64,000 bases of DNA from Torpedo marmorata (Eukaryota). The notes under the pieces were generated by a model. It was not told the origin of the DNA and did not search any database. It was given only the letters and a program-made list of their open reading frames with translations. The stretch covers positions 172,608,001 through 172,672,000 of the forward strand of contig OZ360225.1 of the NCBI GenBank assembly GCA_977017645.1, in the 5' to 3' direction. Positions 1,806-64,000 of this stretch are shown here, piece after piece; positions within the stretch are counted from its first letter, which is position 1, and every line of letters starts with the position of its first letter. The translations under genes were made by a program, and so were the position numbers.

Positions 1806-2049
1806 TGTGGTAAACCACTGTTTTGTGTATTGTGTGTACTGCTGTCTGTCCCAACGACTCCTCTCCCCTCCTTTGGGTCTCCAGGTAATCCCTCCCCTTT
1901 TCTCTCTTGAATAAAGGCTTGTGTGCTAGGGCTCCGCACTCAGTCCGGGAGATCTGTAGGTCCACTGCAGCTCTGTTCTATGTATATTAAAGCCTATGGT
2001 ACGTTAACCCTCTCATAGTCTCTTGAGTGCTTAATTGATAGGCATATCA
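1806..2049 (+). repeat. Gypsy 5' LTR
   Basis: tgtggtaaacc...ggcatatca; direct repeat of 6092-6335. Confidence 0.97.
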
Positions 2050-2050
2050 A

Positions 2051-2068
2051 TTTAATATACATACAACA
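2051..2068 (+). promoter_or_regulatory. Putative self-priming primer-binding site (complementary to LTR 1974-1991)
   Basis: No TGG tRNA-type PBS follows the LTR. tttaatatacata (2051-2063) is the exact reverse complement of tatgtatattaaa (1979-1991), extending to 17/18 bp. Confidence 0.7.
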
Positions 2069-2080
2069 AAAAAAAAAATT

Positions 2081-5000
2081 ATGGAAGGCGCCCTCCGACC
2101 GGACCGACTAGACATCGACCCTTTGGCTCCTGACGCTGGTCATGCATTCGAACACTGGCTACGCTGCCTCCGATCGTTCTCAAAGGAGGTCAAAGCCGAA
2201 AGCGACGAGCAGAAGCTAGAGGTCCTAGTATCTAGGGTAAGCCCTCGATTGTATTCGACCATCTGGAAATGCGGAACGTACAACGAGGCGATGGAGGTGC
2301 TGAGAAAGATCTATGTGACCCCTGTTAATGAGGTCTATGCAAGGTACAGACTATCGTTGCGGAAACAGCGGGCCGGGGAGTCAATGGTGGACTTTGTCAG
2401 AGACATCCAGTACCTAGTGCGAGCGTGCGCCTGTAAAGCGCTGACGGAAGAGCAACATGTTGATCTGCTGGAGAGGGACACCTTTATTATGGGGATGAGG
2501 TCAACATACGTACGCCAGCGGCTGCTGGAGCACTCTGATCTCGATCTTCGTTCTGCGGTGGCGATGGCTTGCACACTGGAGTCCGCGCTGCAGAACTCCG
2601 ACGCGATGCAGACGCGGGACCCCCAGCCTAATGCGTGGATCGCCCCGTTCCCCAGCCCCACCGATCCAACTGTGGCCGCTGTGGCCCGCGACCCGATTGC
2701 TGCCGCCGCTACCCGCGACCCGACCGCTACCAACGCTACTCTCACCGCCGCAGCTGTTAATCGCGAGCCCAAGAAGTGCTACTTCTGCGGGCTCGACAAG
2801 CATCCGAGGAAGCGCTGCCCGGCCCGCGACGCGACTTGTTCCAACTGCGGCAAGAAAGGCCACTACGCGAAGGCCTGCCGCTCCAAGCCGCGCGCGGGCC
2901 CGAGTAGTGCCGCGTGCGAGAGATGGGAGCGGCCATCTTGCAGACTGGCACTTCCGGCGCCGACCGCGTGTGAGGAGTGGAAGCGGCCATCTTTCATGCT
3001 GGCACTTCCGGCGCCGCCATCTCAGAGCCATACATCGTTACTTCCGGCACTTCCGGCGCCGCCATTTTGTGCAGAGACCTCCAGCGACACGTGCAACCCA
3101 CGGGAGCGGCCATTTTTAAAGACCTCGGATCAAGACGACTTCACCCCTACTTTGGCATCCATCACCCTCGACCAGAACGTTCCCCACCAGCTGACAAGAT
3201 CCATGATGGACATACTGGTCGAGGGACACAAGATAAATTGTTTATTTGACACTGGAAGCACTGAGAGCTTTATCCACCCGGATACTGTTCAACGCTGTGG
3301 CCTAACGATCGTACCGGTAAGCCAGAGGGTGGCCATGGCGTCCGGGTCCCACACAACCGACATCCGGGGGGCGTGTGTGGCGAACATTGTGGTACAAGGG
3401 GCAGAGTACAGACAATTTTCCTTCTTTGTGATGAACCGTTTGTGTGCGCCGGTATTACTGGGTTTGGATTTTCAGAGCCATTTGCAGAGCGTTACAATGC
3501 GGTATGACGGTCCTCTCCCCGCGATCACTGTAGCCAACCACCAGTTTCTGGACAGCACGCCCGAAACCACCTGTGGTCTTTCTACCCTTAAGATCTCGCC
3601 TCCGTCGTTGTTTGCGAACCTGACCCCGGACTGTAGGCCTGTGGCAACTAAAAGCAGGCGTTACAGTACCGAGGACAGAGCATTCATCAAGACGGAGGTA
3701 CAAAGATTGCAACAGGAAGGGATTATAGAGATGAGTAATAGTCCCTGGAGAGCCCAGGTGGTCATTGTAAAAGGGGCCAAGAGCAGAATGGTGGTGGACT
3801 ACAGCCAAACCATTAACAGGTTTACGCTTCTAGATGCATACCCGCTACCACGGATAGCGGAGATGGTGAACCAAATTGCCCAATACCGCCTCTTTTCCAC
3901 CATCGACTTGAAATCGGCATACCATCAGCTCCCTATCCGTCGGGAGGACCGCCCATACACCGCGTTCGAGGCAGATGGCAGGCTGTTCCAATTCTTGCGC
4001 CTTCCTTTTGGTGTTACTAATGGTGTTTCTGTTTTTCAGCGGGAGATGGACAGGATTGTGGACCATTACAAACTCAAAGCCACTTTCCCATACCTTGACG
4101 ACATTACCATCTGTGGTTATGATCGTCAGGACCATGACAACAACCTCCGGAAGTTCCTGCAGGCGGCAAAAGCTCTAAACCTCACGTATAACAAAGAAAA
4201 ATGCGTGTTTGGTACCACTCGCCTCGCTATTTTGGGGTATGTGGTCGAGAACGGGGTAATTGGACCAGACCCCGAACGCATGCGGCCCCTGCTGGAACTT
4301 CCGCTCCCCGCCAATCCCAGAGCCCTTAAACGATGCCTCGGGTTCTTTTCTTATTATGCCCAATGGGTCCCAAATTATGCGGATAAGGCCCGACCCCTTG
4401 TGAAATCCACTGCATTTCCCCTTGCTTCGGAGGCACGTAAGGCGTTCGACCTTATAAAAGGGGACATTGCGCGAGCAACAATGCACGCAGTGGATGAGGA
4501 GACACCCTTCCAGGTGGAGAGTGACGCATCGGACTTCGCGCTGGCTGCTACCCTCAACCAGGCGGGAAGGCCGGTGGCATTTTTCTCCCGAACCCTACAG
4601 GGCCCCGAAATTCGGCACTCAGCGGTGGAGAAGGAAGCCCAGGCCATAGTGGAGGCCATCAGGCACTGGAGGCACTATCTTGCCGGTAAGCGTTTTACCC
4701 TGCTGACAGATCAACGCTCTGTGGCATTCATGTTCAACAATCAGCAGCGGGGTAAGATCAAAAATGACAAGATCATGAGGTGGAGAATAGAGCTCTCCAC
4801 CTACAATTACGACATCATGTACCGGCCCGGGAAGCTCAATGAGCCCTCCGATGCTCTATCCCGGGGATCATGCGCCAGCGCGCAGGTCGACCGATTACAC
4901 GCCCTACATAACGACCTATGCCACCCAGGAATTACCAGGCTCTTTCACTTCGTGAAGTCACAGAACCTGCCATACTCCCTGGAAGAGGTCAGGACAATGA

Positions 5001-6016
5001 TCAGCAGTTGCCGGGTTTGCGCGGAGTGCAAACCCCAGTTTTACCGCCCCGACAAGGCACAGCTGATCAAAGCCACTCGCCCCTTTGAACGTCTCAGCAT
5101 TGACTTCAAGGGTCCCCTTCCCTCCACGAACCGCAATGTGTATTTTCTGAACATTATTGACGAGTACTCGCGGTTCCCCTTCGCCATTCCCTGCCCCGAC
5201 ACTTCGGCTGCCTCAACCATAAAAGCCCTTCGCCAGGTATTTACGCTGTTCGGCTTCCCGAACTACATTCATAGCGACCGGGGATCAGCTTTTATGAGTG
5301 AGGAGCTGCGCCAGTTCCTGCTGACCCGGGGCATCGCCACTAGTAGGACCACCGCATACAACCCCCGAGGTAATGGACAGGTGGAAAGGGAGAACGCCAC
5401 TGTCTGGAAGGCGGCGCTCCTGGCTCTCAAGTCCAGGGGACTGCCGGTTTCCCGCTGGCAAGATGTTCTCCCCGAAGCCCTCCATTCGATACGGTCCTTA
5501 CTGTGCACAGCCACAAATGTAACGCCTCATGAGAGATTTTTCTCCTTCTCCAGGAGGTCGAACACCGGGACCGCCCTGCCTGCCTGGCTGATGTCTCCGG
5601 GGCCGGTGCTGCTCCGCAACCACCTCCGGAGCAGCAAATATGAGCCCGCGGTCCAGAGGGTGCAGTTAGCGCACGCTAACCCGCAGTACGCCTACGTGGT
5701 CTTCCCGGATGGGAGAGAGGACACGGTCTCAATTCGGGACCTGGCGCCCGCGGGAGCGCCGGAGGAACCTCTCGATGGGCAAGACCACTCGCTGCGGCCC
5801 CTCCCTAGTCCCTCTTCTACAACGTCAGACCAGGCACCTGCGATGGAACCCACAATCCTGTCATCTCACCCAGCACCACAGGAGGAGGCGACGGCCTTGC
5901 CATCTTCCCCTGCACCACAACCCGCACCCAGGGTACCCCCTGCACCACAACCCGCACCCAGGGTACTGCGCAGGTCACAGAGGCGAGCCAAACCACCGGA
6001 TCGCCTTGACCTGTAA
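2081..6016 (+). CDS. gag-pol: Gag-Pol polyprotein (Gag with Zn knuckles, aspartic protease, RT, RNase H, integrase), 1311 aa
   Basis: CYFCGLDKH...CSNCGKKGHYAKAC; LFDTGS; RT LPFG...YLDD; RNase H ESDAS...TDQ; integrase H-x3-H/C-x2-C, IDFKGP, HSDRG, NGQVER. Order PR-RT-RH-IN; no chromodomain evident. Confidence 0.98.
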   Translation: MEGALRPDRLDIDPLAPDAGHAFEHWLRCLRSFSKEVKAESDEQKLEVLVSRVSPRLYSTIWKCGTYNEAMEVLRKIYVTPVNEVYARYRLSLRKQRAGESMVDFVRDIQYLVRACACKALTEEQHVDLLERDTFIMGMRSTYVRQRLLEHSDLDLRSAVAMACTLESALQNSDAMQTRDPQPNAWIAPFPSPTDPTVAAVARDPIAAAATRDPTATNATLTAAAVNREPKKCYFCGLDKHPRKRCPARDATCSNCGKKGHYAKACRSKPRAGPSSAACERWERPSCRLALPAPTACEEWKRPSFMLALPAPPSQSHTSLLPALPAPPFCAETSSDTCNPRERPFLKTSDQDDFTPTLASITLDQNVPHQLTRSMMDILVEGHKINCLFDTGSTESFIHPDTVQRCGLTIVPVSQRVAMASGSHTTDIRGACVANIVVQGAEYRQFSFFVMNRLCAPVLLGLDFQSHLQSVTMRYDGPLPAITVANHQFLDSTPETTCGLSTLKISPPSLFANLTPDCRPVATKSRRYSTEDRAFIKTEVQRLQQEGIIEMSNSPWRAQVVIVKGAKSRMVVDYSQTINRFTLLDAYPLPRIAEMVNQIAQYRLFSTIDLKSAYHQLPIRREDRPYTAFEADGRLFQFLRLPFGVTNGVSVFQREMDRIVDHYKLKATFPYLDDITICGYDRQDHDNNLRKFLQAAKALNLTYNKEKCVFGTTRLAILGYVVENGVIGPDPERMRPLLELPLPANPRALKRCLGFFSYYAQWVPNYADKARPLVKSTAFPLASEARKAFDLIKGDIARATMHAVDEETPFQVESDASDFALAATLNQAGRPVAFFSRTLQGPEIRHSAVEKEAQAIVEAIRHWRHYLAGKRFTLLTDQRSVAFMFNNQQRGKIKNDKIMRWRIELSTYNYDIMYRPGKLNEPSDALSRGSCASAQVDRLHALHNDLCHPGITRLFHFVKSQNLPYSLEEVRTMISSCRVCAECKPQFYRPDKAQLIKATRPFERLSIDFKGPLPSTNRNVYFLNIIDEYSRFPFAIPCPDTSAASTIKALRQVFTLFGFPNYIHSDRGSAFMSEELRQFLLTRGIATSRTTAYNPRGNGQVERENATVWKAALLALKSRGLPVSRWQDVLPEALHSIRSLLCTATNVTPHERFFSFSRRSNTGTALPAWLMSPGPVLLRNHLRSSKYEPAVQRVQLAHANPQYAYVVFPDGREDTVSIRDLAPAGAPEEPLDGQDHSLRPLPSPSSTTSDQAPAMEPTILSSHPAPQEEATALPSSPAPQPAPRVPPAPQPAPRVLRRSQRRAKPPDRLDL

Positions 6017-6091
6017 ATTATGACTGTAAATACTTTGAGATTGTATTGTGGCCACTCCACCCCGCTGGACTCTTTTAAAAGGAGGGGTGAA

Positions 6092-6335
6092 TGTGGTAAA
6101 CCACTGTTTTGTGTATTGTGTGTACTGCTGTCTGTCCCAACGACTCCTCTCCCCTCCTTTGGGTCTCCAGGTAATCCCTCCCCTTTTCTCTCTTGAATAA
6201 AGGCTTGTGTGCTAGGGCTCCGCACTCAGTCCGGGAGATCTGTAGGTCCACTGCAGCTCTGTTCTATGTATATTAAAGCCTATGGTACGTTAACCCTCTC
6301 ATAGTCTCTTGAGTGCTTAATTGATAGGCATATCA
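6092..6335 (+). repeat. Gypsy 3' LTR, preceded by PPT aaaaggaggggtgaa
   Basis: Direct repeat of 1806-2049. Confidence 0.97.
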
Positions 6336-6340
6336 CTTAC

Positions 6341-6422
6341 GGTAGACAAAAATTAAAGAATTTCATGTATGTTACATTCTAAATGTAGTATTACGTGACA
6401 ATAATGGAACCTTTACCTTTAC
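6341..6422 (+). mobile_element. SINE3 3' part with (CCTTTA)n tail
   Basis: Matches the reverse complement of 7153-7230 and ends gtgacaataatggaacctttacctttac. Confidence 0.9.
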
Positions 6423-7780
6423 TTCCCAGTTTTTTTCACGTGCCCTCCCACCCATATCCACCTATGACCTCTTGCCTGTGGGCCAGTGCTCCTCCCCCAG
6501 GATTTTACTAATTTTTATTCCAATATCTCCAATTTTCTTAACTTCTTTAATATGGGTGGATAAATCTGTGATGTTAGATGATTCGTCTGGGATATAAGTA
6601 CAGCATTCTCTCCCAATAAGAGCAAAAGTGCCCCCCTTTTCAGCTGATATGATGTCCAGGGCCATCCTGTTTTGAATTACAACATAACGTATTGCAGCCA
6701 TTTCAGTAGTTATGGCCATTACCTGACTCTGAGTTTTACTAAGGGATAAAACAGTTCTATTTGCCAGTTGTTCCAGAGATGCTGCGAGGTTAATGATTTC
6801 ACGTGAATTCCGGGCAGTTCCATAAAAGGGAAAAGCAATCATCCAGAACCTTTCACTTTCAGAAATTCCACGCTTATCCCTTCCCAGGTGTGGATTCTCT
6901 TGCAAGTGAGGCAAGATTCGTAAATGGGGGACTATATAGGCCAGATAGCAACACCCTGTCCACAGTTTATGGCTTGGCTGGGTGTGCCACCGCTGGTGTT
7001 GGCTCGATTGCCACATATCCAGTATGTCTTTACGTATGTGGTATTTGTAATGCAACTCTGCTTTCCTACAAAGAGAGTATCCTTTCCCTTCTGAAAGTTA
7101 CAGTAGCACACACACAGCATCAGTTACTGTGAAATCATAGCTGGAGAGTATGGGTAAAGGTTCCATTATTGTCACGTAATACTACATTTAGAATGTAACA
7201 TACATGAAATTCTTTAATTTTTGTCTACCGTAAGGCAGACAGAGAATCGCTACTTTGTCCAGCGCCCCTCACAGAAACCTACAGCACCTGGTGTTCCTAG
7301 GCGGTCTCCCCTCCAAGTACTGACCAGTCCTGTGCCTGCTTAGCTTCCGAGATCAGACAATCCCAGTCGTATTCAGGCTTTAAGGCCAGGAAAGCTTTTG
7401 TGCTTTAAACTTGTTATAGTATATATTGGGCCATAAATACCAGCCCTCAAAGCACTGGCAAAGACAATCATCTGGGGTTCTTTCAGTTTTTATCTCTGTT
7501 ACCTTGTGTCTCATTTGACATTGCCCATGCTGAGAGTCTTTCACTGTTGTTAAGGGCAACAACGGAAACTGGGATCAGACTGCTGCCATGTGGCGGGACT
7601 TCAGCTCACACCCAACACTGGTCACTACTCACTCTCCTAGCGTAATGGAGACATAAGGACAAAAATGTGTTTCTATCTTATTCAGGGAAGGGTTTAGGGG
7701 GGTAGAATCTGGTGGGATATGGGTACCTATCATGTCAATAATAGTAACAGTAAAACATAAGCTCAGTCTTCATCATGCTT
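6423..7780 (-). pseudogene. env: ERV-1 env remnant (TM ectodomain in ORF 6462-7055), interrupted by SINE3
   Basis: IQNRMALDIISAEKGGTFALIGRECCTYIPD = ISD plus a decayed CX6CC. The membrane anchor is missing. Confidence 0.9.
7153..7379 (-). mobile_element. 5S rRNA-derived SINE (SINE3), complete copy
   Basis: Its reverse complement equals 1656-1805 + 6341-6417 with 4 substitutions counted by eye. Confidence 0.93.
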
Positions 7781-7782
7781 TC

Positions 7783-9500
7783 TTAGTTAGAGTCTTTATA
7801 ACCTTTTCCAATTTGTTTACAGTCCGAGTAGTGTATCCACCGCGGATGTCCTTCAACCTTTACTGCCGTAGGTGTGGTCAGCAGCACTTGAACAGGGCCT
7901 TTCCAGCAGGGTCCTAATTTATTCCGATCCCCATTTTGAATCAGCATGTAGTCGCCGGGCTGGAGGAGGGGCACCTGTTTGCCGTCAATAGGTTCCTCGG
8001 GATACCTCTGAGTCTCTTTCACCTGTGAGTGTAGGACTGACAGTGCTTTGGTTAGTTGCTGTACATAGGTGGCCATTTTTTCACTTAGCGCATGTAAATC
8101 TAAAGTAACGTCAGTCTTAGGATTTGCTCCCCAAGGCGCTCGGAGTGGCCTCCCATACATAACCTCAGCTGGGGTTAACCCCGTACTGCAGGGCGGGGTT
8201 ATACATGTTTCAAATAAAGCCAACAGCAATAACTTTATCCAATTAAACCTAGTTTCTTCTGACAACTTAGCCAACTTATTCTTTAAGGTCCCAGGTAGAT
8301 CAATAATAACAAGACAAGCAATTCTATAAAATCAACCTATATACAATCAAATGGTAGACATTCATGTCCTTCCCTGAGGGCACTTAATTTCTTTACCAGG
8401 ATTATTTTGCTGACAGATGATACATTCCTGTGCCTTTCTTTGTGCCACTTTTCTCAATTTAGTGTGTCACTCCTACCATTCCCTTCTTAGCCAAATATAT
8501 TATTGCATGTATATAATTCAGCAGTACAGGTAAAAATTGCATTAGGTACAGAAATTGTCCAGCAGGGGTGGTTCATAAATCAGTTTCTGGATTTCTGGCG
8601 CACCCCCGCTGTTTCCAGAGTTTAATCAAATTAGCAGGGCAGGGGCATCCCCCTGAAGTTACACCACATCCCCATATCAGGCAAGACCGTTCTATTTTCA
8701 AGCAGTTTATCACTTTCTGAATAAACGGTGAAGGGACCATTTATAACAGCAGCTTTTGCAATGGCATCTGTGTAAGCATTCCCAAGGGCTACAGGGTTCT
8801 GATATGGGCATAAATTTTCCTTTCCCTATCATGTAGGCTCTAATAAGAGCAAACAATTCAAATTGCTGGGAAAGATTGGATGGTGGAAGGCAGCCGTCTT
8901 TATTACTTCATCAGTATTTTTCACAATGGCATAACCTGCACAGTGTAGACCTGTATCCTCAACAAAGGCTGATCAGTCAATAAACCAAGTCGTAGTTTCA
9001 TCAATGGGACTGTCTATTAAATCTTGTCGTGCCAGAAGTCAAAAGATAATTATGCTGCAAACAATCATAATCTGGTTCTTCAAGTTCACCTGGAGGCGGT
9101 ATTAAAAAGGCTGTCGAGTTAACAGTAATTCAGTCGTGGAAGGTCAGATATGAATTCACTAAGAGAAAAAGTTCATAGTGGCTTAAACATGCTTGAGTCA
9201 TGTGGTCTGTTTGATTAGACGTCAGGAGAGCTGTCACTGAATGCTGGATGTAAACTTGTACTGACTGATGTAAGGTGGTATGGAAAGTAGTTAAGTAGGT
9301 TTATCCTGACCATACTTCCTCTGATACTTCTCCAGTATTTTGCCATGGACTTCTTGAGGCGTCAATGCTCTCTGCGAGAAATCTTGTAAAGTTGTTCCTG
9401 TATCAATCAAAAATGGAAGAGAGACACTCTGCACCCTCATTGTAACGATAGGTTCCTCATTCCTTCTTCGTGTCACTAGGGGGGAGGCAGTGAGAACCAC
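7783..9500 (-). pseudogene. pol: ERV-1 pro-pol remnant with internal deletions (RT polymerase domain and IN core largely missing)
   Basis: LPFLIDTG at about 9400-9420; RNase H-like WFID (about 8985) and GNAYTDAIAK (about 8760-8785); IN C-terminus TGLTPAEVMYGRP...WKGPVQVLLTTPTAVKV..WIH in ORF 7783-8274. Confidence 0.88.
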
Positions 9501-11769
9501 TGGTCCCTTATCGGATCACTGGCAGAAGGGATTATTAATAATAAAAGATGCCTGATGGCAATCGTCCTCTCCGGAGGAGGGGCTCTCCCAACGCCAATGT
9601 CCTTCTCCACCAAACTTAAAACAGACATGTCGGCGAGTTGGTGGTCCACGAGATAATTATTAGGTGTACTCCGGGTGCCTGGGCAGGGTGTCTAGAATCG
9701 GTCTCGCCCCTGAGGTGGGTTAGAGCGCTGAACCGGAACCTGTGTTGGTTTGCTGGAATACGGCCAATCATCTCTTTTATCATCATCTCTCATCAGTGTT
9801 CTTAAGAGATATTCATATTTCACTTTGGGTTTCAGTGGTGCCTCAGCTCTCTCTTTATTACTCGGCCAGTTCTTTGGTATTATCTGACCAGTTTAAGTTA
9901 GTCTTAAACAATTATGCTGGTTTTTTTTCTGGTAAGCATTGCATAAAGATTGCATTAAATTAAGCCGAGGGCTGGTCATCATTAAATGTCTGATCTGCAG
10001 CATAAGTCTGGTGCGCTACAATAAAAGTGTTTCCAAATTCCCTGTGCAGTGTCTTTGGGGAGGGGTTTACATTCCAGTCAACTGGTCGCTTTAGTTTAAA
10101 CTATCAATTGGCTGGTGCCGGTGCTGTCTGAATTCTTCACACAACAGTACGGGATCTTGCGGTGTTTGCATTGCCCTCCCTCTATTTCACATTTTACTCA
10201 GGTTTCAAAATTTAATGACACAGGGAAAAAAAATCCTGGGATTGAGTCCCATACATGTTTTAAGTTGATCTGATATAGTCAATAAAGCCCTTTGGATTTT
10301 TACTTCTGTTGGGAGCATGGTGGGCTATTAACAACATTTCTTGTTGTTTTCACAGAGTATATATTTCCCCTGGTTTATTTTTCTTTCTTCTCTGTCTCGT
10401 TTTTACTCCTTCTGCTGTACAAGTTAGTAACTGAGATTGCAAGTGAGATTGTAAACACTGAAGGAGTGAAACACCATTTCTTAACTGTCATTTTCATGTC
10501 CAATTAGCTGTGAATCTGCTGCATGAATTGGCTTTTACATTGCGACCTGTAATCTGTGTCTGCCAATTTAATCCTACAAAGCGCTGGTGAAACAGATGCA
10601 TTACAGCATGTTCGTAAAAAAAAAGGATTCATTCCATTAGGAGTGAAGCACTCTAGAGGGCAGGTTTCAAATTACTGTTGATGATACCTTCAGCTCGTTT
10701 TTTTTTAATCCCCTCTTCCTCACACCCTGCACAGTCTTGTACAAACAAAAGTGCTCGAGGAGCCTGGAAGGTGGGAGGCAAACGTTTTCAAGTTTCTTTT
10801 TCCAAAATGAGCAACGATTCTCCATCAAAGCTGAGTCTGAAACCTCATTTAGCTGCTTCTCCTTCTTCGTATCTAGTGAGACACGGGGCTAGTGGAGTTG
10901 TGGCTGCTGGGGTACATATGGGGGTGGTCTTGCCCACAAGGAATCTTTTGATTCCTCATCCTCATCATTCTGCAAGAATAGGGTCGCCATGCCTGACATC
11001 GGGACCCCGGGGTTTTCTTTTATCACCTTCTGTTTGTTAACCATCTGGCACCTAGCTCTGCTCTCATTCTCTCTCCGATTTCTCTCCTGATTGTCATCCC
11101 TCACATTCAGCCTGCAGGACTTCTCAGTCTTTTTGGAGCACCCTCCTTTGTACGTTACACTATCCCTCTATAACTTGCATTTTTCCTCCAGTTTATTTCT
11201 TTAGATTTTTGCTATTCTTGTATACGCTTTCTCCATTTCTTTGCTGCATCCTTTTCCTACACTTATTTGTCCCTGCGATCGCATGATTCTCCCTTTGTTT
11301 CTGTTCCCTTTCTTTTTTTCTCTTGTTTATCGTGGCAGTCATGATCTGACTGAAATACCTGCCAGGTTTTTCTGGTTTCCATTCTGAGTACATACCACTA
11401 TCCCCTGCACAGCTTTTTATCCCTCCAGCTCTTTTTCTTTGTTCCTCTTTTACATACCACTATTCCCTTTTTCCACTTTTTCTTTTTAAAATATTTTTAT
11501 TGAGTTTAACATATCTTGCATACATAATTGTAATGAACAGATAACAAATCTTTTCATATACATGTAAAATAACTCTTTTTCCACTTTTTAGCGGCATCTT
11601 TTTCCCACATTAGCTGCTCTGCCTCAGCTATAGTGATCGTGTTCCATGTCCCTCCTACGGACCATACTTCATTTGTTAGAGTCACACTTAACATTCTTAA
11701 ATTCTTTTCATCTCCCGAGTGCAAATCACACATCGCCTTCACGAGAGAGCCTTTTTAACTCTGTCCCAT
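9500..11769 (-). pseudogene. gag: ERV-1 gag remnant
   Basis: MGQ start at 11769, W.VGGTW matrix-like block, PPPY late domain at about 10917-10928, CFKFGGEGHW decayed knuckle at about 9594-9623. Many stops and frameshifts. Confidence 0.8.
11482..11574 (-). mobile_element. 93-bp L1-type 3'-end insertion in gag
   Basis: 15-bp TSD ctttttccacttttt (11467-11481, 11575-11589), with AATAAA and an A-rich tail on the minus strand. Confidence 0.75.
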
Positions 11770-11899
11770 ACTTACCATAAATTTACCCGGCCAGCCCTTT
11801 TCTGGCCTCCTGCTCAATTCCTACCTTTTTTTTTACAATCTGAGTTGTGCAACTCACTGTCCTATTTAAATTCCTACTCTTAATTTACCAGGTCCTCAT

Positions 11900-12110
11900 T
11901 TCCTCATCTCTTTCCTATTTTTTTCTGCCATAGTAATTGTTCTGCTTTTTCAATATCTCATACAGACCACGTTTCTCCCGACTGGCCATGCTTCAATATT
12001 TGTTAATGCTGTCGAAAGCTGTCAAAATTCTTTACCATACTTCGGATACAAATAACACAGTTGTTGTACCGGGGTGCCCCCATCACTTTTGTCCATAGCC
12101 TGTTTCCCAT
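11900..12110 (-). pseudogene. Second matrix-like module upstream of gag
   Basis: Manual translation with 2 frameshifts: MG/QAMDKSDGGTPVQQLCYLYPKYGKEF*QLSTALTNIEAWPVG/TWSV*DIEKAEQLLWQKK, similar to 11580-11769. Confidence 0.7.
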
Positions 12111-12115
12111 ATTAC

Positions 12116-12363
12116 AATTCCGAGCGGCAAGTTACACTACCTGCAAAGTCACACGGTCGCTCCCCCGTTTGATTTGATTCTGAGCAGCAAGTTACACTAC
12201 TTGCAAAGTCACACGGTCGCTCCCCCGTTTAATTTGATTCTGAGCGGCAAGTTACTCTACTTGCAAAGTCACACGGTCGCTCCCCCAGTTAATTTGATTC
12301 TGAGCGGCAAGTTACTCTACTTGCAAAGTCACACGGTTGCTCCCCCGTTTAAATTGATTCTGA
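12116..12363. repeat. 60-bp tandem repeat x4 in the ERV-1 5' leader
   Basis: Unit ygagcggcaagttac.ctac.tgcaaagtcacacggtcgctcccc...ttgattc recurs at 12121, 12181, 12241 and 12301. Confidence 0.97.
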
Positions 12364-12622
12364 TTTTCTCTAACAGTCCCTTCCCTGGGACCACACTTAC
12401 TTTTCAGCCCTCTCTTTAAGGACCTACCTTTTTTCCACCGTTATTCTCTACGTCCGGATTTCGGCAGGGAACCAGATCAACCTCGGACAAGGGACCACAG
12501 TGTTCCCGGGAGCTTCCTTGGGAGGTCGATCTCAAAGGGTCCGACTAGAGCTCAATTTTCTCCCCGTCCAGTCCCGGCAACCTGCAGCCTCTTACTCAGT
12601 CTCTGGTGTCTGTCCCAGCGAA

Positions 12623-12640
12623 ATCCTGCCGGCTACGCCA
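12623..12640 (-). promoter_or_regulatory. Primer-binding site, tRNA-Ser
   Basis: TGGCGTAGCCGGCAGGAT; 17/18 match to the complement of the vertebrate tRNA-Ser(AGA/TGA) 3' end as recalled (ATCCTGCCGACTACGCCA). It lies 1 nt from the LTR CA end. Confidence 0.88.
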
Positions 12641-12641
12641 A

Positions 12642-13372
12642 TGTAAAATTTTGCCCGTGCTGCAATTTATCTGTGAATAAAGAATACAGCAGAGAACCAC
12701 AAAACAAGTTTTAAAACACAAACAGTTTATTACTGCAGTAACACTGGCGGGAGATAGGAGGCACTATGAAAAGTCAATGACTCTTCTCTAGTGCTGAGTC
12801 CTTCTCCAAAGTCAATACTTCAGGGGTCGACTTATATAGTGAATAAGATCAATGCCTACGTATGGTTTCACATGTTCTCACAAATTGAAAATAAATTGGA
12901 AACAGCTTTTACATTTGTTCATGGAATTGGAATGTCTTGTTGTTAAATTGATCACTCGACAGTGACTCCCAAAGCCTTTAATTACTTCTTAGCTCTAATC
13001 ACTCATTCAGGACTGTCACAGTTAATGTCTCTTACAGATGTGAAACGTTATCCCTTCTTGATAAGAAAAGCATTACAACTGATTTATATGACAGCCTTTC
13101 TGGGCAAATGAAGACATAATCTTCTTCAGAAACCGAAACTTAAAGTTCAACTAAAGTTACAATCCCATAATCCTTTGCATTCTATGTTGGCCAACTCTTA
13201 TAGAAACAGTCCCAGAATTCTTTACAATGCCACAAGATAATGTTTAAATTGTCCACAAACTTTAACATGGGTGCAAATAAATCGCTGCTAAACATTCTCA
13301 ACTCCCGATTGTGAATACAAGGGTTAAACACACAATGCCCATCCACCCACAGGCACAGCACACTAATGAACA
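12642..13372 (-). repeat. ERV-1 5' LTR
   Basis: Abuts the PBS and ends ...ttttaCA. TATATAA at about 12832-12838 and AATAAA at about 12726-12731 on minus. The distal end (TG at 13372) is inferred. Confidence 0.75.
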
Positions 13373-39760: not shown

Positions 39761-40043
39761 AATGATAACAAATGTTCTGGAAAATCTGTTTGGGGGGGTG
39801 GACTTTTTGTCTTCTCCGTACCTAGTCACACGTCACCTTAGTAGCGAGGGCCACTTCCCGAACAATAGAGGGTGGTAGTACTGGTGTAAATATACCAGTA
39901 TTATATATAGTGGAATTTTTAGTTTTTTTATTTTCCTTTTATTTCTTTTTTTCTTTTTCTTTCTAAGGAGATGTCAAATAGATTACAAATGTGGAAGGGG
40001 AAACCAGCAGGTCTGATGGAGAGAGAGTTATTAAATATTAGAA

Positions 40044-41608
40044 ATGGCAGATAGTAAATTAATAAATGTAGTAAGTATTAATGTAAATGGGCTAAATAAT
40101 CCAATTAAAAGGAAGAAAACTTTAGAATATATTAAAAAGTTAAAAGTTGATATAGCTTTTTCACAAGAGACACATTTGACAGATATAGAACATCAGAAGT
40201 TGAAAAGAGAATGGGTTGGTCAAATGGTAGCGTCTTCATTTAATTCTATAGCAAAAGGAGTTGCTATATTGATTAATAAAAAGTTACCCTTTAAAATACA
40301 ATCAGTGGTGACAGATGTGTCAGGAAGATACGTCTTAATAAATTGTCAGATATATTCAGAAATGTGGATACTCATAAATATATATGTGCCAAATATGCAA
40401 GATGAACAATTTATTCAAGATTCCTTTATGCATTTGTCAGAAGCAAATGATAATATTTTAATTGGTGGAGATTTCAATTGTTGTTTAGATCCAATAATGG
40501 ATAAAACATCGAAATTAACTATTAGAACTAAAACTGCTAAAATAATTCTTACTTTGATGAAAGATTTGAATTTAATAGATATTTGGAGGAAGTTGAATCC
40601 GAGAGAAAAAGATTATTCCTTTTATTCTTTTAGACATGATTCTTATTCTAGAATAGATATGTTTTTACTGTCAGCACAATTGGAAGATAGGGTGAATCAA
40701 GCACAATATAAAACAACAATAATTTCTGATCATTCGCCTCTATTAATGTCATGTATAATTCCAGAAAAAGAAAAAATTATATATAGATGGAGATTTAATT
40801 CCTCTTTATTGAAAAGAACGGATATTTGTAATTATATAAGAGAAATTCAAGAATTTTTACAGATTAATTCTGATTCGATTGACAATAAATTTATTATTTG
40901 GGAGGCTTTGAAAGCTTATTTAAGAGGTCAAATAATAAGTTATTCAGCAAAAATTAAGAAGGAATATATTCAGGAATTGGATAATTTGGAGAAGGAGATT
41001 GAGTTTTTGGAGAAGGATTTGCAAAAAAAGAGATCAGAAGAAAAGAGGAAAAATTTAACTGAAAAAAAATTATATTATATTACGTTACAAACATATAAAA
41101 TAGAAAAATTAATTGAAAGAACTAAGCAAAGATATTATGAATTGGGAGAAAGAGCTCATAAAGTCTTAGCCTGGCAATTAAAGAAAGAACAAACCTCTGG
41201 AACTATAACAGCTATAAAAATGAATTCTAAGAAAATAACATACAAACCTCGAGAAATAAATGATTCTTTTAAGGATTTTTATTTAAATTTATATAAATCT
41301 CAAACTGATAAAGATTATTCTAAAATTAATGAATTTTTACCTAAAATTAAGTTGCCTAGATTAAATATTCAAAGTAAAGAATTTTTAGATTCATTGTTTA
41401 TGATGAGAGAAGATAATGAGGTTCTTAGTTCTTTAACAAGTGGAAAATCTTCGGGGGAGGATGGTTTCCCATCAGAATTTTATAAGGAATTTAAGGATTT
41501 ATTGATACCTCCTTATAAGGAGGTGTTAAAACAGATAACGGAAACTCATTCTCTACCGGAAAAAATTTCAAATGCAATAATAACAGTTATACCTAAAAAA
41601 GATAGAGA
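40044..41608 (+). pseudogene. L1-A ORF2 N-terminal half (APE endonuclease to pre-RT)
   Basis: SINVNGLN, QETH, GGDFN, SRIDMF, SDHSP, GKSSGEDGF. Confidence 0.93.
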
Positions 41609-43044
41609 TTTTTTTAATTTTTTAAATTTTTTAAAAAATATTTTATTTTAAAATTTGAATTTTCTCACAGTAGTACAACATACGTAATATACATTATTAA
41701 TTCCAGTAAATAAAAAAATAATTTGTATTACAGTGTATCTAACTCATCCCTTAACCCACCCTCTATAATGTTGCTACCCCACCCTCCACCCTTCCCCTCC
41801 CTTTTATTCCCTCCCCTTACTAAAAACTAAAAGAAAAAAACAGAAAGGAAGGCATTGGTATTACTTATTAAAAAAAAACATCTGCACGGATCGCTGTTGG
41901 GTCCACGATTCAATGCGTGGCATTCAATAGTATTTATTCTTTAAATTTAAGAGAGTCAACAGGGTCTAGGATGTAGAGCAACACATTTAAATGTTCATAC
42001 CTAATGATTGGATATATGGACGCCAAATTTGCAAAAATATCCCATATTTGTTTCTCATATTATATGTTATTTTTTCCAATGGAATACAACTCCGCATCTC
42101 TATATTCCATCTATCCATGCCTAAATTTGTATCTGATTTCCAGGTTACTGCTATACACTTCCTTGCTACTGCTAAAGCAATTTTTACAAATTTCAATTGA
42201 TATGTAGATAACTTCAACTTTGGTCTAGTTCCTTCCACATTCCCTAATAAAAATAAATCAGGATTCTGTGGAAATGTAACACCGGTAATTTGTTTTAACC
42301 GTTTCCCTAACTCTGTCCAAAAACATTTTACTTTAGGGCATAACCATGTTGAATGTAGAAAGGTTCCCTTCTCTTCACCACATCTAAAACACTTATTTGA
42401 TAATGTAGATTTTATCTTATTCAATTTCTGTGGTGTAAGATATAATTGATGTAAAAAATTATACTGTAGAAATCTATATCTTACATTAATAGTATTGGTT
42501 ATAGTATCTTGACATAAATCCGACCATCTTTTTTCATCAATCATAACATTAAGATCTTGCTCCCATCTTTGTCTAGATTTATGAAGTCCTTGTTTTAAAA
42601 CTCCCCTTTGTAACAAAGAATACATTATAGAAGTAAATTTTTTAATATTTTAATATTGCCTTTCCTAATAACGGTTTCTACCTCACTACAATCTTGTAAC
42701 AACATATCCGGACCTAGTTTGCAGCTGACAATGTAGCAAGATTACTTAGTATTGTTCATTTAGCTCAAAAAAGAAAAGTACTATGTGTCGCGGTGGCACT
42801 AGATGCAGAGAAACCTTTTGATAGACTGAAGTGGGATTTTTTGTTTAAAGTATTGGAGAAATTTGGATTTGGGAGGATTTATATAGATTGGATTAAAGCA
42901 TTATATAATGCTCCAAAAGGTAAAGTAGTGACTAACGGACAAATATCAACTTCGTTTTGTTTGACAAGATCTTGCCGACAAGGGTGCCCATTGTCACCAG
43001 CTTTATTTATATTATCTATAGAACCATTGGCAGAGGCAATTAGA

Positions 43045-46305: not shown

Positions 46306-47127
46306 TTAGAAGTGATTTGGCAATTAAGGGATTTATATTTGGTCAAGAGCAACATAAAATTAGTTTATTTGCGGATGATGTTTTAATATATTTGACAGAG
46401 CCTGAGACTTCTCTGCAAAGATTGCAGTTTAAATTGGAGGAATATGGGAAAGTTTCTGGTTATAAGATAAACTGGGATAAAAGTGAAATTATGCCTCTTA
46501 CAGAGGGAGACTATACTTTATGTAAAAGAAGCACTCAGTTTAAATGGCTACATAATGGGATAAAATATCTCGGGATTCGAACAGATAATAATTTTAAAAA
46601 ATTATATAAGTGGAATTATTTACCACTGCTTAAAAAGATTTGTAAAAATGGATTAATTTACCTATTACATTGATAGGAAGAGTTAACTGTATTAAAATGA
46701 ATATATTTCCAAGGATACAGTATTTGTATCAAACTATACCTATTTTATTACCACAGGTTTTTTTCCAGGATTTAAATAAACAAGTGCGAAAATTTCTTTG
46801 GAAAGGTAAAATGTCAAGAGTTTCTATGGAATGTTTAACTTGGAAATATGAATTGGGAGGTTTACAACTCCCTAATTTTAAAAATTATTATCGAGCGGCA
46901 CAAATGAGATTTTTTACTTCCTTGTTTGAAAGTGAAGGAAGACCTGCATGGGTTGGAATAGAGCTTGGAGAAATAGGAGAAAAGGTACCAGAAGAATTTA
47001 TATATAAATGGAATTCAAAATTATTGACAGGTGTTGAAGAAACACCGTTACTAAAACATTTGATTAATGCTTGGAACAAGATTAATGATGAGATAGGGAT
47101 GAAAGGAACGATATTACCTAAAACGTC

Positions 47128-48834
47128 TTTTTTTTTAAAAAAAAATTATTTTTTTATTTTTTTTATAATTTTATTTAAATTTTAAAATCACAAAATACAT
47201 AAATCAAAAATAATATATCATTCCAAGTACATGTGATATATTTCCTCCCCCCTCCCACCCTCCCCTCCCCAACCCCCCCAGCACTATTCCAAAAAAAAAA
47301 AGAATATTAGTTATAAAGAAAAAAAAAGAAAATAATTGAATAATAAAGAATTAAAGAATTAAAGTGAGGAGAAAACAAATTACAAGCTAATTCTATTTAT
47401 ATATTGGAGGTTAGTTTTGCCAGCGGAGCCGACTTCTAGAGAATTAATTCATACCCATAATTCTCATATATGGGCTCCAAATTTTCAAAAAGAAATGATA
47501 TTTATTACGTAAATTATATGTAATCTTTTCCAATGGTATACATGAACGTAATTCTGCATGTAATCTATCTAAATTCAAATCTAAATCTGATTTCCAAGTA
47601 ATAGCAATACATTTTTTTGAAACCGCTAAAACAATTCGCAAAAATTCTATTTGATACATATTCAATCTATTTCTAATACTAAATTTTTTAATATCTCCAA
47701 ATAAAAATAACATAGGGTCCATTGGAACCGTAATATTAAAAATTCTATCCAAAAAATCTTTAACTTTAGACCAAAAGTCCTTAATTTTAGAACATAACCA
47801 TGTTGAATGAACAAACGAACCAATTTCATCCTTACATCTAAAACACATATCTGATAATGCCGGATTAAATTTCTTTAATTTTTTAGGTGTTAAATATAAT
47901 TGATGAAAAAAATTATATTGTACTAATCTATACCTAACATTAATAATTTTAGTCATACTCAGTTTACATAAATCTTTCCAATGTTTTTTATCTATATTAA
48001 TATTTAAGTCTGATTCCCAACTTAATCTTGATTTATGAAATCCTACCTTAGGCATTTTTCTCTGAAGTAATTTATACATTTGTGATGTAAATTTGTTAAC
48101 ATTTCCATTAGTAATTAATAATTCTAATCCATCCTGTCTTGGAGCTATTAATTGATTCCCCAATTTCTCAACTAAAAATCCTCTAACTTGATAATAAGCT
48201 AAAATTGTATTATCCAATATTCCAAATTTTTCTTTCAGCCTGGAAAATGTAACAAATCTTCCAGCCTCAAAACAATCTTTAATCTTCTTAATTCCTTTTT
48301 GAAACCATAATTTTAAAAATTGATTATCAATAGAAAAAGGTAATAATAAATTCTGATACAGTGGCGTATTTGGAGATAATAACCCTTTTCGTCCTATCTC
48401 ATTGTCTAACTGTGTCCAAATTTCCAACAAATGTTTAATAATCGGTGAATTTTTCTTTTTAACTAATAATAATTTAGAATTCCATTTATAAATAATATCT
48501 TCTTTATATCTCTCCCCTATATTATTCAATTCTATATTAATCCAAGCAGTAGATTTAGTTCAATCAAAAAATTCATTAATAAACTTTAATTGAGCTGCCT
48601 TATAATAATATAAAAAATTGGGGAGTTGTAATCCACCCATCTCGTAATTCCAAGTTAATTTATCCATACTTACTGTCGCTAATTTTCCCTTCCATAAAAA
48701 TTTCCTAATAATAATTTTTAAATCTTTTAAAAAATTTTGAGGAATTCCAAAAGGAATAGATTGAAAAAGGTATTGAACTCTTGGAAAAATATTCATTTTA
48801 ATACAATTCACTCTTCCCATTAAAGTTATAGGTA
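47128..48834 (-). mobile_element. L1-C: 5'-truncated L1 inserted in L1-B
   Basis: Poly(T) at 47128, 12-bp TSD acctaaaacgtc (47116-47127, 48835-48846), ORF2 C-terminal pieces at 47444-48820. Confidence 0.92.
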
Positions 48835-50787
48835 ACCTAAAACGTCATTGATACAGAATAATCTTATACCTTTAACAAAAGATAATCAATTTTTAAACAT
48901 ATGGTCACAGAAAGGAATAAAGAAGATAGAAGATTGTTGTGAAGGGAACCAATTGATGTCGTTTACACAATTACGAAACAAATATGGAATACCCAATAAT
49001 ACTCTTTTTTGTTATTTTCAATTAAGATAGAAATTTGTTGAAAACAGAATTATATAGACCAATTTCATTGCTAAATGTGGATTATAAGATAATGGCGAAA
49101 ATTTTAGCAAATAGAGTTGCTAAATATTTACCAGATTTAATCCATGTAGATCAAGCAGGTTTTATTAAGAATAGATATTCAAAAGATAATATAGCCAGAT
49201 TAATTAGTTTAACAAATGTGGCACAAAAGAAAAAGGAATTAGCATTAGTATTAACATTAGATGCCGAAAAGGCTTTTGATAGATTAGAGTGGAATTATTT
49301 ATTTATTTAAAGTACTGGAAAAATTTGGCTTTGGAACTACATTTATTAATTGGATTAAAACTATATATAAAGAACCTTCTGCCAGAGTGGTGACAAATGG
49401 ACAAATTTCTTCAAAATTTTTGTTGACTAGGTTGACTAGGATGTCCTCAGAACCTTTAGCAGAATTAATTAGACAGGATATTTAGATTGTTGGTATTAAA
49501 GTTGGTAATGATTGTTTTGAAGCTAGTAAATTTATTACTTTTCAAAGAATGAAAGAAAAGTTTAATGTATTAAATAATACACTTTTTGCTTATTATCAAA
49601 TCAGAGCATTTTTAGTTGAAAGGTTGGGCTATAATAGTTTGACTTTACCAAGACAAAATGAACTGGAATTATTAGTTACTAATGGAGGTGTAAATAAATT
49701 TATTTCTCAAATGTATAGATTGTTAGAGGAAAATGCCTAAATTAGGAATTCATAAATCAAGGTTAAAATGGGAATCAGATCTGAATATAACAATAGACGA
49801 AGAACATTGGAAAGAATTATGTAAATAAAGAATGACGAAGATTATTAACGTTAGATATAGATTAGTGCAATATAATATTTTTCATCAATTATATTTAACA
49901 CCTAAAAAATTTAAGAAATTTAATCCGACATTATCTGGTTTATGTTTTAGATGTAATAGAGAGGAAGGTTCTTTTGTACATTCTACATGGCTTTGTCCAA
50001 AGATATATGATTTTTGGTTGAAATTTAAACAGTTTTTGAACAAAGTATTAAGAATTACACTCCCAATGGATCCTATGATATTTTTGTTTGCCGATATTAA
50101 AAGAATTAGTATTAAGATTAAATTAAATATGTATCAAATAGAATTTTTGCAAATTGCTTTAGCTGTTTCTAAGAAATGCATTGCTATTATATGGAAATCT
50201 GATGTAGATTTAGGGTTAGAAAGATGGCATGCAGAACTTCGTTCAGCTATACCACTTGAAAAAATTACATAATTTACGTAATAAATATCATTTTCTTTTT
50301 GAAAATATGGAGCCCATATATAAAAACTGTTGGTTTCAGGATTTGAAGATCTCTGGATATCAGATCCGACTGGCGAACCTTTGTTCCACAATAAAATTAG
50401 TTTATAGTTGTTCTTTTTTTAGATTGACATTCTCCTTACTTTATCTTTTTCTTTCCTTCTTTCTTTTCTATTTTAGTAGATTAGTAGGGGTGGGAGGGTT
50501 AGGGAGGGGAAGGAAGGGAGGGGGGTGAAAATGTATCACATGTATTTTGATAATTTTGCATTTTATACTATGATTTAAAATATTTTTTTAAAAAGCTTGA
50601 GTTAAGTGTGGGTCGTGTCGGGTCATGTTTGGTGAGCACATGAAATCCATGAAAAAAGTTCTGTTTTCGGAGGTTTCCGGTTTTCGGAATTCCAGATAAA
50701 AGGTTAGGCACCTGTATTGTAATTGGTGTATCTTACATTTTTGTTTGGCTGCAGCAAGTAAAAATTTTGGTACATCTGAACATTGTA

Positions 50788-55765: not shown

Positions 55766-58700
55766 ATGCCTACCCTGAAGAAGTTCGCCTTTGCTCTCCG
55801 AAGGGAGTTCTGTGGGATTCTCTTTCACTGCTCCCCATCTGCAACCCCTGCTGCTCTCAAGCTCTACGACCATGTACTCACCCAGACTCGATTCCACAGC
55901 CACGTTGCCTTCCTTGCTACTTGCCTCCATCGCCATCTGGTGCCTCGTGGTTTCTAGCTTCGATTCCAGGCCTCGCAGTTTGGCCCCCGCAAGGACCTCA
56001 GGTACCTCCACAGCATCGACTGCTGCTCTCTCTGCTTCTCCCAACGACTCCTCCGCACCATCCTCACCTCGATGCAGAGATACCAGCAGCAACTCGCCCT
56101 CTCCCTGCCACAGCTCTGGACCTCGCTGGCCATGGCCTACAGCGGACCCCTCCTATACTACATCCGCCGCCGGATCCACGCGTTCAACCACCGGCTCTAC
56201 ACCTACCTGGCGTCCATCAAGAACCGTAAGCTTGCCTCCCTCGAGACTGCATCCTCTGCGAACCTGACCGTGGATCCCCATCTCGGCCCCGGCCGCCGAC
56301 TTACCGGAGCTCCTAACACCGCAGCCGCCGAACCGACCCTGGACCCTGGCCGCCGACTTACCGGAGCTCCCAACGCCGCAGCCGACGACTTGATCCCTGG
56401 TCCCGGACGCCGACTTACCGGAGCTCCCAACGCCGCAGCCGCCGACCCGACCCTGGACCCCGGCCGCCGACTTACCAGAGCTCCCAACGCCGTAGCCGCC
56501 GACTTGATCCCTGGTCCTGGCCGCCGACTCACCGGAGCTCCCAACACGACGGCCGCCGACCCGACCCTGGACCCCGGCCGCCGACTTACTGGAGCTCCCA
56601 AAGCCGCAGCCGCCGACTTGATCCCTGGTCCCGGCCGCCGACTTACCGGAGCTCCCAACGCCGCATCCGCCAACCCGACACTGGACTCCGGCCGCCGACT
56701 TACCGGAGCTCCCAACGCCGCAGCCGCCGACCTGACCCTGGACCCCGGCCGCCGACTTACCGGAGCTCCCAACGCCGCAGCCGCCGACCTGACCCTGGAC
56801 CCCGGCCGCCGACTTACCAGAGCTCCCAACGCCGTAGCCGCCGACTTGATCCCTGGTCCCGGCCGCCGACTCACCAGAGCTCCCAACGCGACGGCCGCCG
56901 ACCCGACCCTGTACCCCGGCCACCGACTCACCGGAGCTCCCAACGCCGCAGCCGCCTGTTCCTACCCGTGCCCCGGGCGCCGACACGACGGTACTCCCGA
57001 CGCTACGGCCGCCAACCCCAGCCCGGACCCCGAGACTCTACTCACCAGAATTTCCGATGCCTCCACCGCCGACTCCCGACACAGACTGTTACCTGCTGGA
57101 GCCTCCCACGCTGACTGCCACTGGAGTCCTCATCTCGCAACAAGATCCCACTTACCTATCCCCCTCACTACTCCTTCCCTCTCCTCCTGCACCTCTCCCT
57201 ACTCCACCCCCACCTCCCCCTCTCTGCCCCACTCTCCTCCCCAACCCTCAGACCTCATCCCTTCCCTTCCCTCCATCCCCCCCCCTCTCTCTGGCTACCC
57301 TCCCTACCCCCCTCTCCCACCCTACTACCTCCCCTACCCCCCACCTCCCCCCTCCGAACCCCCCTACCCCTCCCTCCAACCTCCCCCACCCTCCACCTCT
57401 CCCCTCTGACCTCCCCAACCCTCCCCCTCCCCCCAACACCCTCCACAACACCGATCCCCACTCTAACCCCTGCTTGGTTTTTACTATCCCCTCCGACCTT
57501 CCCCTCTCTGAGATGGATCGCTCCGTCCTCAGTAGAGGCCTCACCTTCGTCCCCCTCCGCCAACACCTCAACGAGTTCCGCGCACGCCATGATGCCGAAC
57601 TTTTCTTCCGTCGCCTCCGCCTCCGTGCTCACTTCCATGACCGTGACTCTCCACCCCCCACCCAAGACCCTTTCTCCCGCTTCAAGCCTTCTTCCTCTTC
57701 CTGGACACCTCACCCTGGCCAGCTGCCCGCTCTGGACCTTTTTATTTCCAACTGCCGCCGAGACATCAACTGTCTCAACTTCACCACCCCCCTCTCGTAT
57801 TCCAACCTCACCTCCTCAGAACGCTCTGCCCTCCACTCTCTCCGCAACAATCCCAACCTCACCATCAAACCCGCAGACAAGGGCGGTGCGGTTGTGGTCT
57901 GGCGCACTGACCTCTACCTTGCCGAGGCCAGTCGACAACTCTCAGACACCTCCTCCTACCGACCCCTCCCACAAGACCCCACCACAGCACATCAAGCCAC
58001 TGTCTCCAACACCATCTCCGACCTCATCACCTACGGTCACCTCCCCTCCACGGCCACCAACCTCATTCTCCTCCACCCCCGCACTGCCCGTTTCTACCTT
58101 CTACCCAAGATACACAAACCCAACCATCCGGGCAGACACATTGTTTCTGCCTGCTCCTGCCCCACCGAACTAGGTTTCATCTTACCTTGACTCCATCTTT
58201 TCTCCCCTGGTCCAATCCCTCCCCACCTACATCCGCGACACCTCACATGCCTTCCATCTCCTCAATGACTTCAGATTCCCTGAACCGGACCGCATCATCT
58301 TCACCATGGATGTTCAATCCCTTTATACCTCTATCCCCCACACAGAAGGTCTGAAAGCACTTCGCTTCTTCCTGGACCAAAGACCCGACCAGTCACCCTC
58401 TACCACCACCCTCCTCCGCCTGGCAGAACTTGTCCTCACTCTCAATAACTTCCCTTTCAACTCATCCCACTTCCTCCAAATCAAAGGAGTAGCCATGGGT
58501 ACCCGCATGGGTCCCAGCTTACGCCTGCCTGTTTGTGGGCTTTGTGGAGCAATCCATGCTGCAAGCCTACTCAGGCAAGACCCCTCATCTCTTCCTCCGT
58601 TATATCGACGACTACATCGGGGCTGCCTAATGCACCCGCGATGAGCTTGTCAACTCCATCCACTTCGCATCCAACTTCCACCACGATCTCAAACTCACCT

Positions 58701-63370: not shown

Positions 63371-64000
63371 TAGTCTCTCATTTCCTAATTTTCCTTAGTG
63401 ATGCTGTTCATGCAATCTTTTCTTTCTTTCTTCTCCTTTGGTTCCCCAGCTGGTGGGACACTCCGGCAGTGGTTCAGATGAATCCATGGTCCTATCTCCT
63501 TTATCTTGACCACAGTGGGTGTTGACAAGATCACCTGGAATGGTTTGACTTGCCTCGGCTGTTTCCACTTTCTTTTAAACTTCTTCACACAGACCCAGCC
63601 TCCAGGATTCATCTGCAGTTCGGTGACTTCCACTGGGGGTCCTTGCGTCTCCCGTACCTGGAAATATACAGATCTAACGGCCAATGTTAGTCCCTTCAAG
63701 TACTTTCCTAATTCTTCTTCTTACACTTCTAAGCTTACCTCATTGCCACTGGGTTTAGTTATTGGCATTGACATAACCCTTCCAGTAACCGTCTCATGCA
63801 GAGTTAAATGGGTACATCTATTTCTACTGTTTCTCATAGACGAATGCTAACAGTTAGCATTGTACCCAGTCCAAACCTGTTTGTCTGCAGACTTTTGCCA
63901 GTTTGGCTTTCAGGCTACCTTTGCACCTTTCTACTAAGACAGCTGATTGTGGATGATACACACAAGAGAATTTCTGTATAATTCTCATAATTTTACACAG

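Follow-up and report, generated by a model that had tools for sequence, protein, structure and literature searches.

The window, a stretch of 64,000 nucleotides from Torpedo marmorata (contig OZ360225.1), contains on its minus strand a provirus which, to judge from its sequence, is a decayed class I endogenous retrovirus (ERV) of gamma/epsilon-like type; this assignment was made because it combines a gamma-type Env transmembrane region, an MLV-type integrase C-terminal domain and a gag/pro layout with a single stop. The features recognised are as follows.

12641..12838, minus strand: 3' part of the 5' LTR, with a TATA-like box at 12838, AATAAA at 12731 and the end of U5 at 12641
12624..12640, minus strand: primer-binding site (one match in the whole window, 0.01 expected)
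12117..12356, minus strand: four 60-nt tandem leader repeats, 54-56 of 60 positions identical, finishing just ahead of the ATG at 12110
11909..12110, minus strand: unit 1, N-terminal half of a matrix-position domain, with two frame breaks and two stops
11770..11908, minus strand: spacer of 139 nt with GGTAAGT at its end and stops in all frames
11290..11769, minus strand: unit 2, second matrix-position domain, with its own ATG-GGA and a C-terminal tail
11482..11574, strand not given: AT-rich host repeat inside unit 2 (93 nt, 81% AT)
11057..11289, minus strand: unit 3, a further copy of which just the C-terminal half is present, collinear with the remaining gag
10916..10927, minus strand: PPPY late-domain motif, aligning with the PPPY of the Gag protein P0012 (described below)
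9516..10445, minus strand: decayed capsid (10445-9879) and nucleocapsid (9635-9519)
7786..8331, minus strand: C-terminal part of integrase (Pfam MLVIN_C, E 9e-14; PDB 2m9u, E 6e-9)
6465..7097, minus strand: gamma-type Env transmembrane region (Pfam TLV_coat, E 4e-7; syncytin-1, E 4e-9)

We take the primer-binding site at 12624..12640 to be of tRNA-Ser type; a second LTR copy (the 3' LTR) was not found within the 64-kb window. The gag and pro genes share one frame, with a single stop between the end of nucleocapsid and the protease DTG (near 9404). By eye, only about 1.05 kb separates the protease motif from the integrase ORF, so reverse transcriptase appears to be largely missing from the provirus. 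The host repeat inside unit 2 carries AATAAA near its end and is bordered by a 15-nt direct repeat, likely a target-site duplication. In the env region, about 250 nt recur in inverted orientation (1656-1808 plus 6336-6439 versus 7129-7379, 92-97% identical); a Gypsy-type element sits within the inverted copy, and this end of the provirus is rearranged. That element (1806-6338, plus strand), assigned to its family from motifs by eye, is young, with 247-nt LTRs that are 100% identical and an unbroken gag-pol frame of 1324 codons (2042-6016). Elsewhere in the window, an integrase C-terminal region at 63457-63937 (minus strand; E 8e-9 to the skate protein P0005, introduced below) belongs to a second, more distant retroviral element, a GC-rich tandem array with a 57-nt period (56171-57154) lies between two repeat copies 4261 nt apart, and the segments 40000-43000 and 47000-50300 are very AT-rich (25-32% GC) with long inverted similarities, such as 47517-48063 versus 49725-50271. 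The locus is a dead provirus, not a co-opted ORF.

The sequence-only reading of this DNA had reported two diverged matrix-like modules on the minus strand, and both translations are indeed present, in units 1 and 2. Module 1 is read across two frame breaks, one just after the ATG-GGA at 12110 and the other near 11976, and across two stops (12024 and 11960); module 2 opens with the ATG at 11769 and is interrupted by a single stop at 11757. The two are identical at 26 of 62 residues (42%; BLASTP E 2e-15), with an alignment score of 120 against a shuffle maximum of 52, a score reached by 0 of 5000 shuffles; their codon-aligned DNA is identical at 92 of 171 positions. Each module had been credited with an MG(Q) start. 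Met-Gly is found on both, but in module 1 the in-frame reading is Met-Gly-Asn, and MG(Q) needs the frame break. Where the WPxxGT/S hallmark of gamma-type matrix had been invoked, module 2 carries WSVGGTW instead. The donor-like GGTAAGT before the second ATG is present at 11776-11770, but the window's minus strand holds 12 occurrences of it and it is not distinctive.

Relatives of the modules were rare. A HMMER search of 1.84 billion proteins returned seven hits, one of which was a true relative, XP_078286998.1 (hereafter P0005); on reading, the other six were repetitive or unrelated proteins. A profile made from P0005 and the two modules found two proteins, P0005 and P0012, among 1093 long candidates, both of them single-module, and no multi-module protein among those candidates. 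P0012, from a Logan contig, is an intact Gag of 566 residues with a single module starting at residue 1, followed by PPPY, by a region that matches Gag_p30 weakly (E 0.021) and by a CCHC knuckle; the module occupies residues 1 to about 110, upstream of the late domain, capsid and nucleocapsid. When module 2 alone was searched against a word index, nothing came up among 20 candidates; an Atlas search with module 2 gave no usable match, and no relative was found in viral contigs. The one metagenome locus, L001, looks like a helical-repeat protein of no relation.

The layout of P0012 and the ESM features agree in placing the modules as the N-terminal, matrix-position domain of Gag, as had been proposed. 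The ESM Atlas neighbours of P0012 residues 1-135 were Gag_p17 (0.92), a mixed Gag_p10 cluster (0.90) and Gag_MA (0.88); these share 144 of 256 features, below the 170 typical of close family members, and are a lead toward matrix, not proof. The anticipated similarity to retroviral MA folds was not recovered: a single-sequence AlphaFold model was poor (pLDDT 55.5), and three fold searches with a model of pTM 0.44 (Foldseek on PDB and on BFVD, and VIA-align), in which the long helix of the model dominates, contained no matrix domain. No Pfam family matched the modules, the four members of the sequence set A2 or the N-terminus of P0012, and a PDB sequence search with the module gave no MA chain up to E 10. 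The label "matrix" is therefore well founded in position and ESM features, not in structure. The myristoylation consensus is a Met-Gly start, usually with Ser or Thr five residues after the Met. A Met-Gly start is found in module 2, P0012 and P0005, and in both relatives it lies at the position matching the start of module 1, where the ATG-GGA is out of frame with the body of the module; at the Ser/Thr position, module 2 and both relatives have Lys or Asp. Given the Met-Gly start, the modules may be myristoylated; their attachment to the membrane would be equally putative, as would a function for the extra units.

Alignment with P0012 also defined the extent of each unit. Unit 1 matches residues 4-70 (E 1.6e-14; 37 of 62 identical), so that module 1 corresponds to only about the first 70 residues of the relative's Gag, and unit 2 matches residues 4-155 (E 4e-18). 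The earlier count of two modules had captured a real repeat but overlooked a partial third copy at 11289-11057: unit 3 matches P0012 residues 53-134 (0 of 2000 shuffles as good), and the late domain, capsid and nucleocapsid follow it in collinear order. Between unit 3 and the tail of unit 2, 114 of 176 positions are identical at a 240-nt offset (0 of 1000 shuffles); the match of that tail to P0012 is marginal (100 of 2000 shuffles). A whole third module was ruled out, as unit 3 has no N-terminal half in front of it. The spacer (11770-11908) showed no significant similarity to P0012 residues 70-125, the leader, unit 2 or unit 3, and its derivation from matrix or as a copy of the leader is unsupported by the tests against P0012 and the leader.

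The divergence of the modules is old, as had been proposed, their synonymous sites being saturated. Over 57 codon pairs, pS was 0.86 and pN 0.35, giving a pN/pS of 0.41 (bootstrap 0.29-0.57), a ratio that choosing the alignment by protein similarity biases downwards; identity at the three codon positions was 29, 41 and 22 of 57. Subject to that alignment bias, these comparisons indicate that the modules diverged under purifying selection. Among the differences listed from other copies of the provirus, seven of the nine classed were synonymous against 21% expected (P 4e-4), with four of five in one module and three of four in the other; they were taken from the 40 of 208 rows listed, one stop-codon site being left out. 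Each module is nearer to P0012 (37/62 and 36/64) than to the other (25/56). A quartet tree rejected no topology, and duplication and capture are not separable by it; four of its five informative columns pair the two modules, which also share a gap of 3-4 residues relative to both P0012 and P0005.

Twelve sequencing runs from six studies contain part of the stretch; none has half of its words, and no RNA run is listed among them. Four of the twelve (X1, X2, X3 and X7, from four organisms) were mapped at 80% likeness, and the joints and contigs described here come from the 15 of 155 joints and 32 of 11,797 pieces listed. A joint between 11909 and 11237, which skips 671 nt and links unit 1 directly to unit 3, was present in one contig of each of X2, X3 and X7 (sides 24, 41 and 99), and X1 contained similar joints. 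Splicing is not needed to account for the skip, as its ends are not GT-AG and it is seen in contigs. Position 11773, four bases before the second ATG, was represented in 12 contigs of X3 and 11 of X7 and in none of X1 or X2, and the spacer region (11770-11908) was covered by contigs of X1, X3 and X7. The start of unit 1 was tied to the spacer in at least seven X7 contigs (sides 34-58) and at least one X3 contig (side 27), by joints that read the two sides of a 136-203 nt skip; at least one X3 contig (side 38) linked 11328 with the core of unit 2. An equal depth of 9.38 suggests that one X2 contig continues from unit 2 to unit 3 and lacks the host insert. No contig spanning unit 1 to unit 2, or running from the end of unit 1 into the spacer, was found among the pieces listed. 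The layout is thus probably not unique to this locus: pieces of it lie in contigs of other organisms, with the link between units 1 and 2 drawn from the contig mapping. As judged by overlap of pieces only, the multi-module arrangement is probably a family trait.

Two other parts of the locus behaved differently in these runs. Neither X3 nor X7 had any depth over the four leader repeats, and a contig of X1 passes over 12104-12467, so the repeats may have been gained recently and in one lineage. The insert at 11482-11574 reached a depth of 1e4 to 6e5 in X1, X3 and X7 against 1e2 to 1e3 alongside, a very high copy number in three of the four runs.

The distribution of ATGs bears on where translation of gag began. 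No ATG occurs between the TATA-like box and the ATG at 12110, a distance of 727 nt in which 9.3 are expected (0 of 2000 shuffles), or in the 541 nt that remain when three of the repeats are dropped; between the ATG at 12110 and that at 11769 there are nine, against 8.2 expected. The leader is thus arranged for initiation at module 1, and nine intervening ATGs make leaky scanning to module 2 unlikely. In P0012 and the skate P0005 the single module lies at residue 1 with a start of the module 1 type, and the contigs that join unit 1 to unit 3 indicate that unit 1 is the start of Gag in sister copies. As units 2 and 3 follow one another ahead of capsid whichever start was used, the lineage had at least one internal matrix repeat. 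Our favoured reading, held tentatively and at a little below even chances, is that the provirus encoded one lengthened Gag beginning at module 1. Under this reading, template switching during reverse transcription would have inserted an internal block of spacer plus unit 2 and repeated a C-terminal stretch of 240 nt, the added sequence being either duplicated or captured from a sister virus. The genomic RNA would be scanned by ribosomes as far as module 1, where translation would begin and where Gly2 would be the myristoylated residue. As internal matrix-like repeats, units 2 and 3 would give Gag more length, or more basic surface facing the membrane, ahead of capsid; the single-module copies would be either the unexpanded form or deletion products. 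In this copy there is no open frame from unit 1 to unit 2, and the spacer holds five stops in the frame of module 2, six in the frame of the ATG at 12110 and two in the third; with these stops and the frame breaks, fusion is unproven. Against fusion also stand the Met-Gly and good initiation context that module 2 retains, which an internal repeat would not need, and a spacer that is not recognisably matrix-derived, as well as the lack of a multi-module protein among the 1093 long candidates and of a listed contig from unit 1 to unit 2. The earlier interpretation had left a choice between a double-MA Gag and a stand-alone MA paralogue; the ATG distribution and the single-module copies favour the fused multi-matrix Gag, neither form being proven.

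That second form, in which module 1 and the spacer are a separate upstream ORF encoding a matrix paralogue of about 110 residues and Gag is made from module 2 by reinitiation or internal entry, we consider unlikely. The least interrupted frame of the spacer does stop at 11785, 13 nt before the ATG at 11769, module 2 begins with ATG-GGA with A at -3, and WDSV orf C offers a precedent as described in the cited part of PMC3185748; but a spacer frame with one stop or fewer arises in 49% of shuffles, so that its openness is at chance level, the two starts are separated by nine ATGs, and in the relatives Gag itself begins with the module 1 type of start. Among 60 candidates, no protein of 35-181 residues scored as a stand-alone form, which is weak evidence in the same direction. 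It is similarly doubtful that the provirus was a defective recombinant, in which a 671-nt block from a sister virus (leader end, donor motif and matrix start) entered the matrix gene and was spread by helper proteins. Such an entry would fit the sister copies that skip just these 671 nt and join unit 1 directly to unit 3, as well as a spacer which looks non-matrix and ends in a donor-like motif; moreover, with each module nearer to P0012 than to the other and the quartet favouring no tree, the purifying selection could date from separate parent viruses. The presence of layout pieces in at least two other organisms (X3 and X7) would, however, require long persistence or spread of the defective form. 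The differences from the X3 and X7 copies are mostly synonymous in both modules (4/5 and 3/4, among the differences listed), and the shared 3-4 residue gap and the pairing of the modules at four of five informative columns also speak against it.

A one-off event at this locus, whether nested proviruses, duplication after insertion or misassembly, is very improbable. No single listed contig spans the region, no run holds half of the words of the stretch, and the env end of the provirus is rearranged; yet the saturated synonymous sites (pS 0.86) and the bias among codon positions (29/41/22 of 57) are unlike a neutral duplication after insertion, no LTR or primer site lies between the units, and the linking joints are present in X3 and X7. 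Together these data indicate that the repeat of the Gag N-terminal domain is real, old and probably family-wide. It is slightly more likely than not that a replication-competent lineage in cartilaginous fish kept two full matrix domains and a partial third under purifying selection, in one Gag or with a matrix-only accessory protein initiated at the first genomic-RNA AUG, and that it reached several host species in this form.

The matrix domain of Gag sets membrane targeting and Env packing. A lineage keeping several diverged matrix units would show this part of Gag to be modular and expandable; if module 1 was instead a separate ORF, it would show that a retrovirus can derive an accessory gene by copying a structural domain. 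As the locus is dead, it matters as a pointer to the family, for which the modules provide seed sequences of a fish matrix family undetected by Pfam.

To our knowledge, known Gags have a single matrix domain. The closest systems are the two relatives themselves. P0012 resembles the modules in its N-terminal domain (56-60% identical) and has its PPPY, capsid and CCHC knuckle arranged as in the provirus, and P0005 (XP_078286998.1, Rhinoraja longicauda) is 45-48% identical to them in that domain; both differ in holding a single module within the protein, a comparison made between proteins, so that an extra module farther upstream may exist there. The gene model of P0005 joins about 100 residues of the matrix-position domain to the C-terminal part of integrase; it could represent a spliced ERV transcript or an error of gene prediction. 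The modules are like Gag_MA (PF01140), Gag_p17 (PF00540) and Gag_p10 (PF02337) in their N-terminal position, Met-Gly, predicted helices and basic KKWKK patch, and unlike them in giving no Pfam, PDB sequence or fold match.

The part of PMC13709493 cited here gives the Gag domains as MA, CA and NC. The sequence-only reading knew of no description of the present arrangement, and our search agreed: no paper on tandem matrix domains in a retrovirus was found in open-access full text; Repbase, Dfam, subscription literature and supplements, outside that scope, may annotate the family. Precedents for pre-gag ORFs or regions, and for a matrix-only host gene, are given in the excerpts of PMC4977317, PMC8672886 and PMC10699275 and in the sources that follow. 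The likeness of WDSV orf C, our model for a separate upstream ORF, lies in its place just 5' of gag; in the cited part of PMC3185748 only 7 bp separate its end from gag and genomic RNA is its presumed template for translation, and it is described there as a mitochondrial pro-apoptotic protein, a description that sets it apart from a matrix copy. Among class I elements, extra sequence 5' of gag occurs as the pre-gag region of HERV-W/ERV1-1 and the pre-gagV1 of HERV-V (PMC5775608, PMC12679747), and MLV glycogag has extra coding 5' of gag that extends the N-terminus of Gag by 88 residues (PMC5120145); in the sections cited these are not described as matrix repeats, unlike the layout reported here. 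PLAC4, a simian co-opted ORF consisting of the matrix part of gag, is kept under purifying selection according to the relevant section of PMC12679747; it differs from the present case in being a host gene derived from a truncated gag, rather than a tandem repeat within a provirus.
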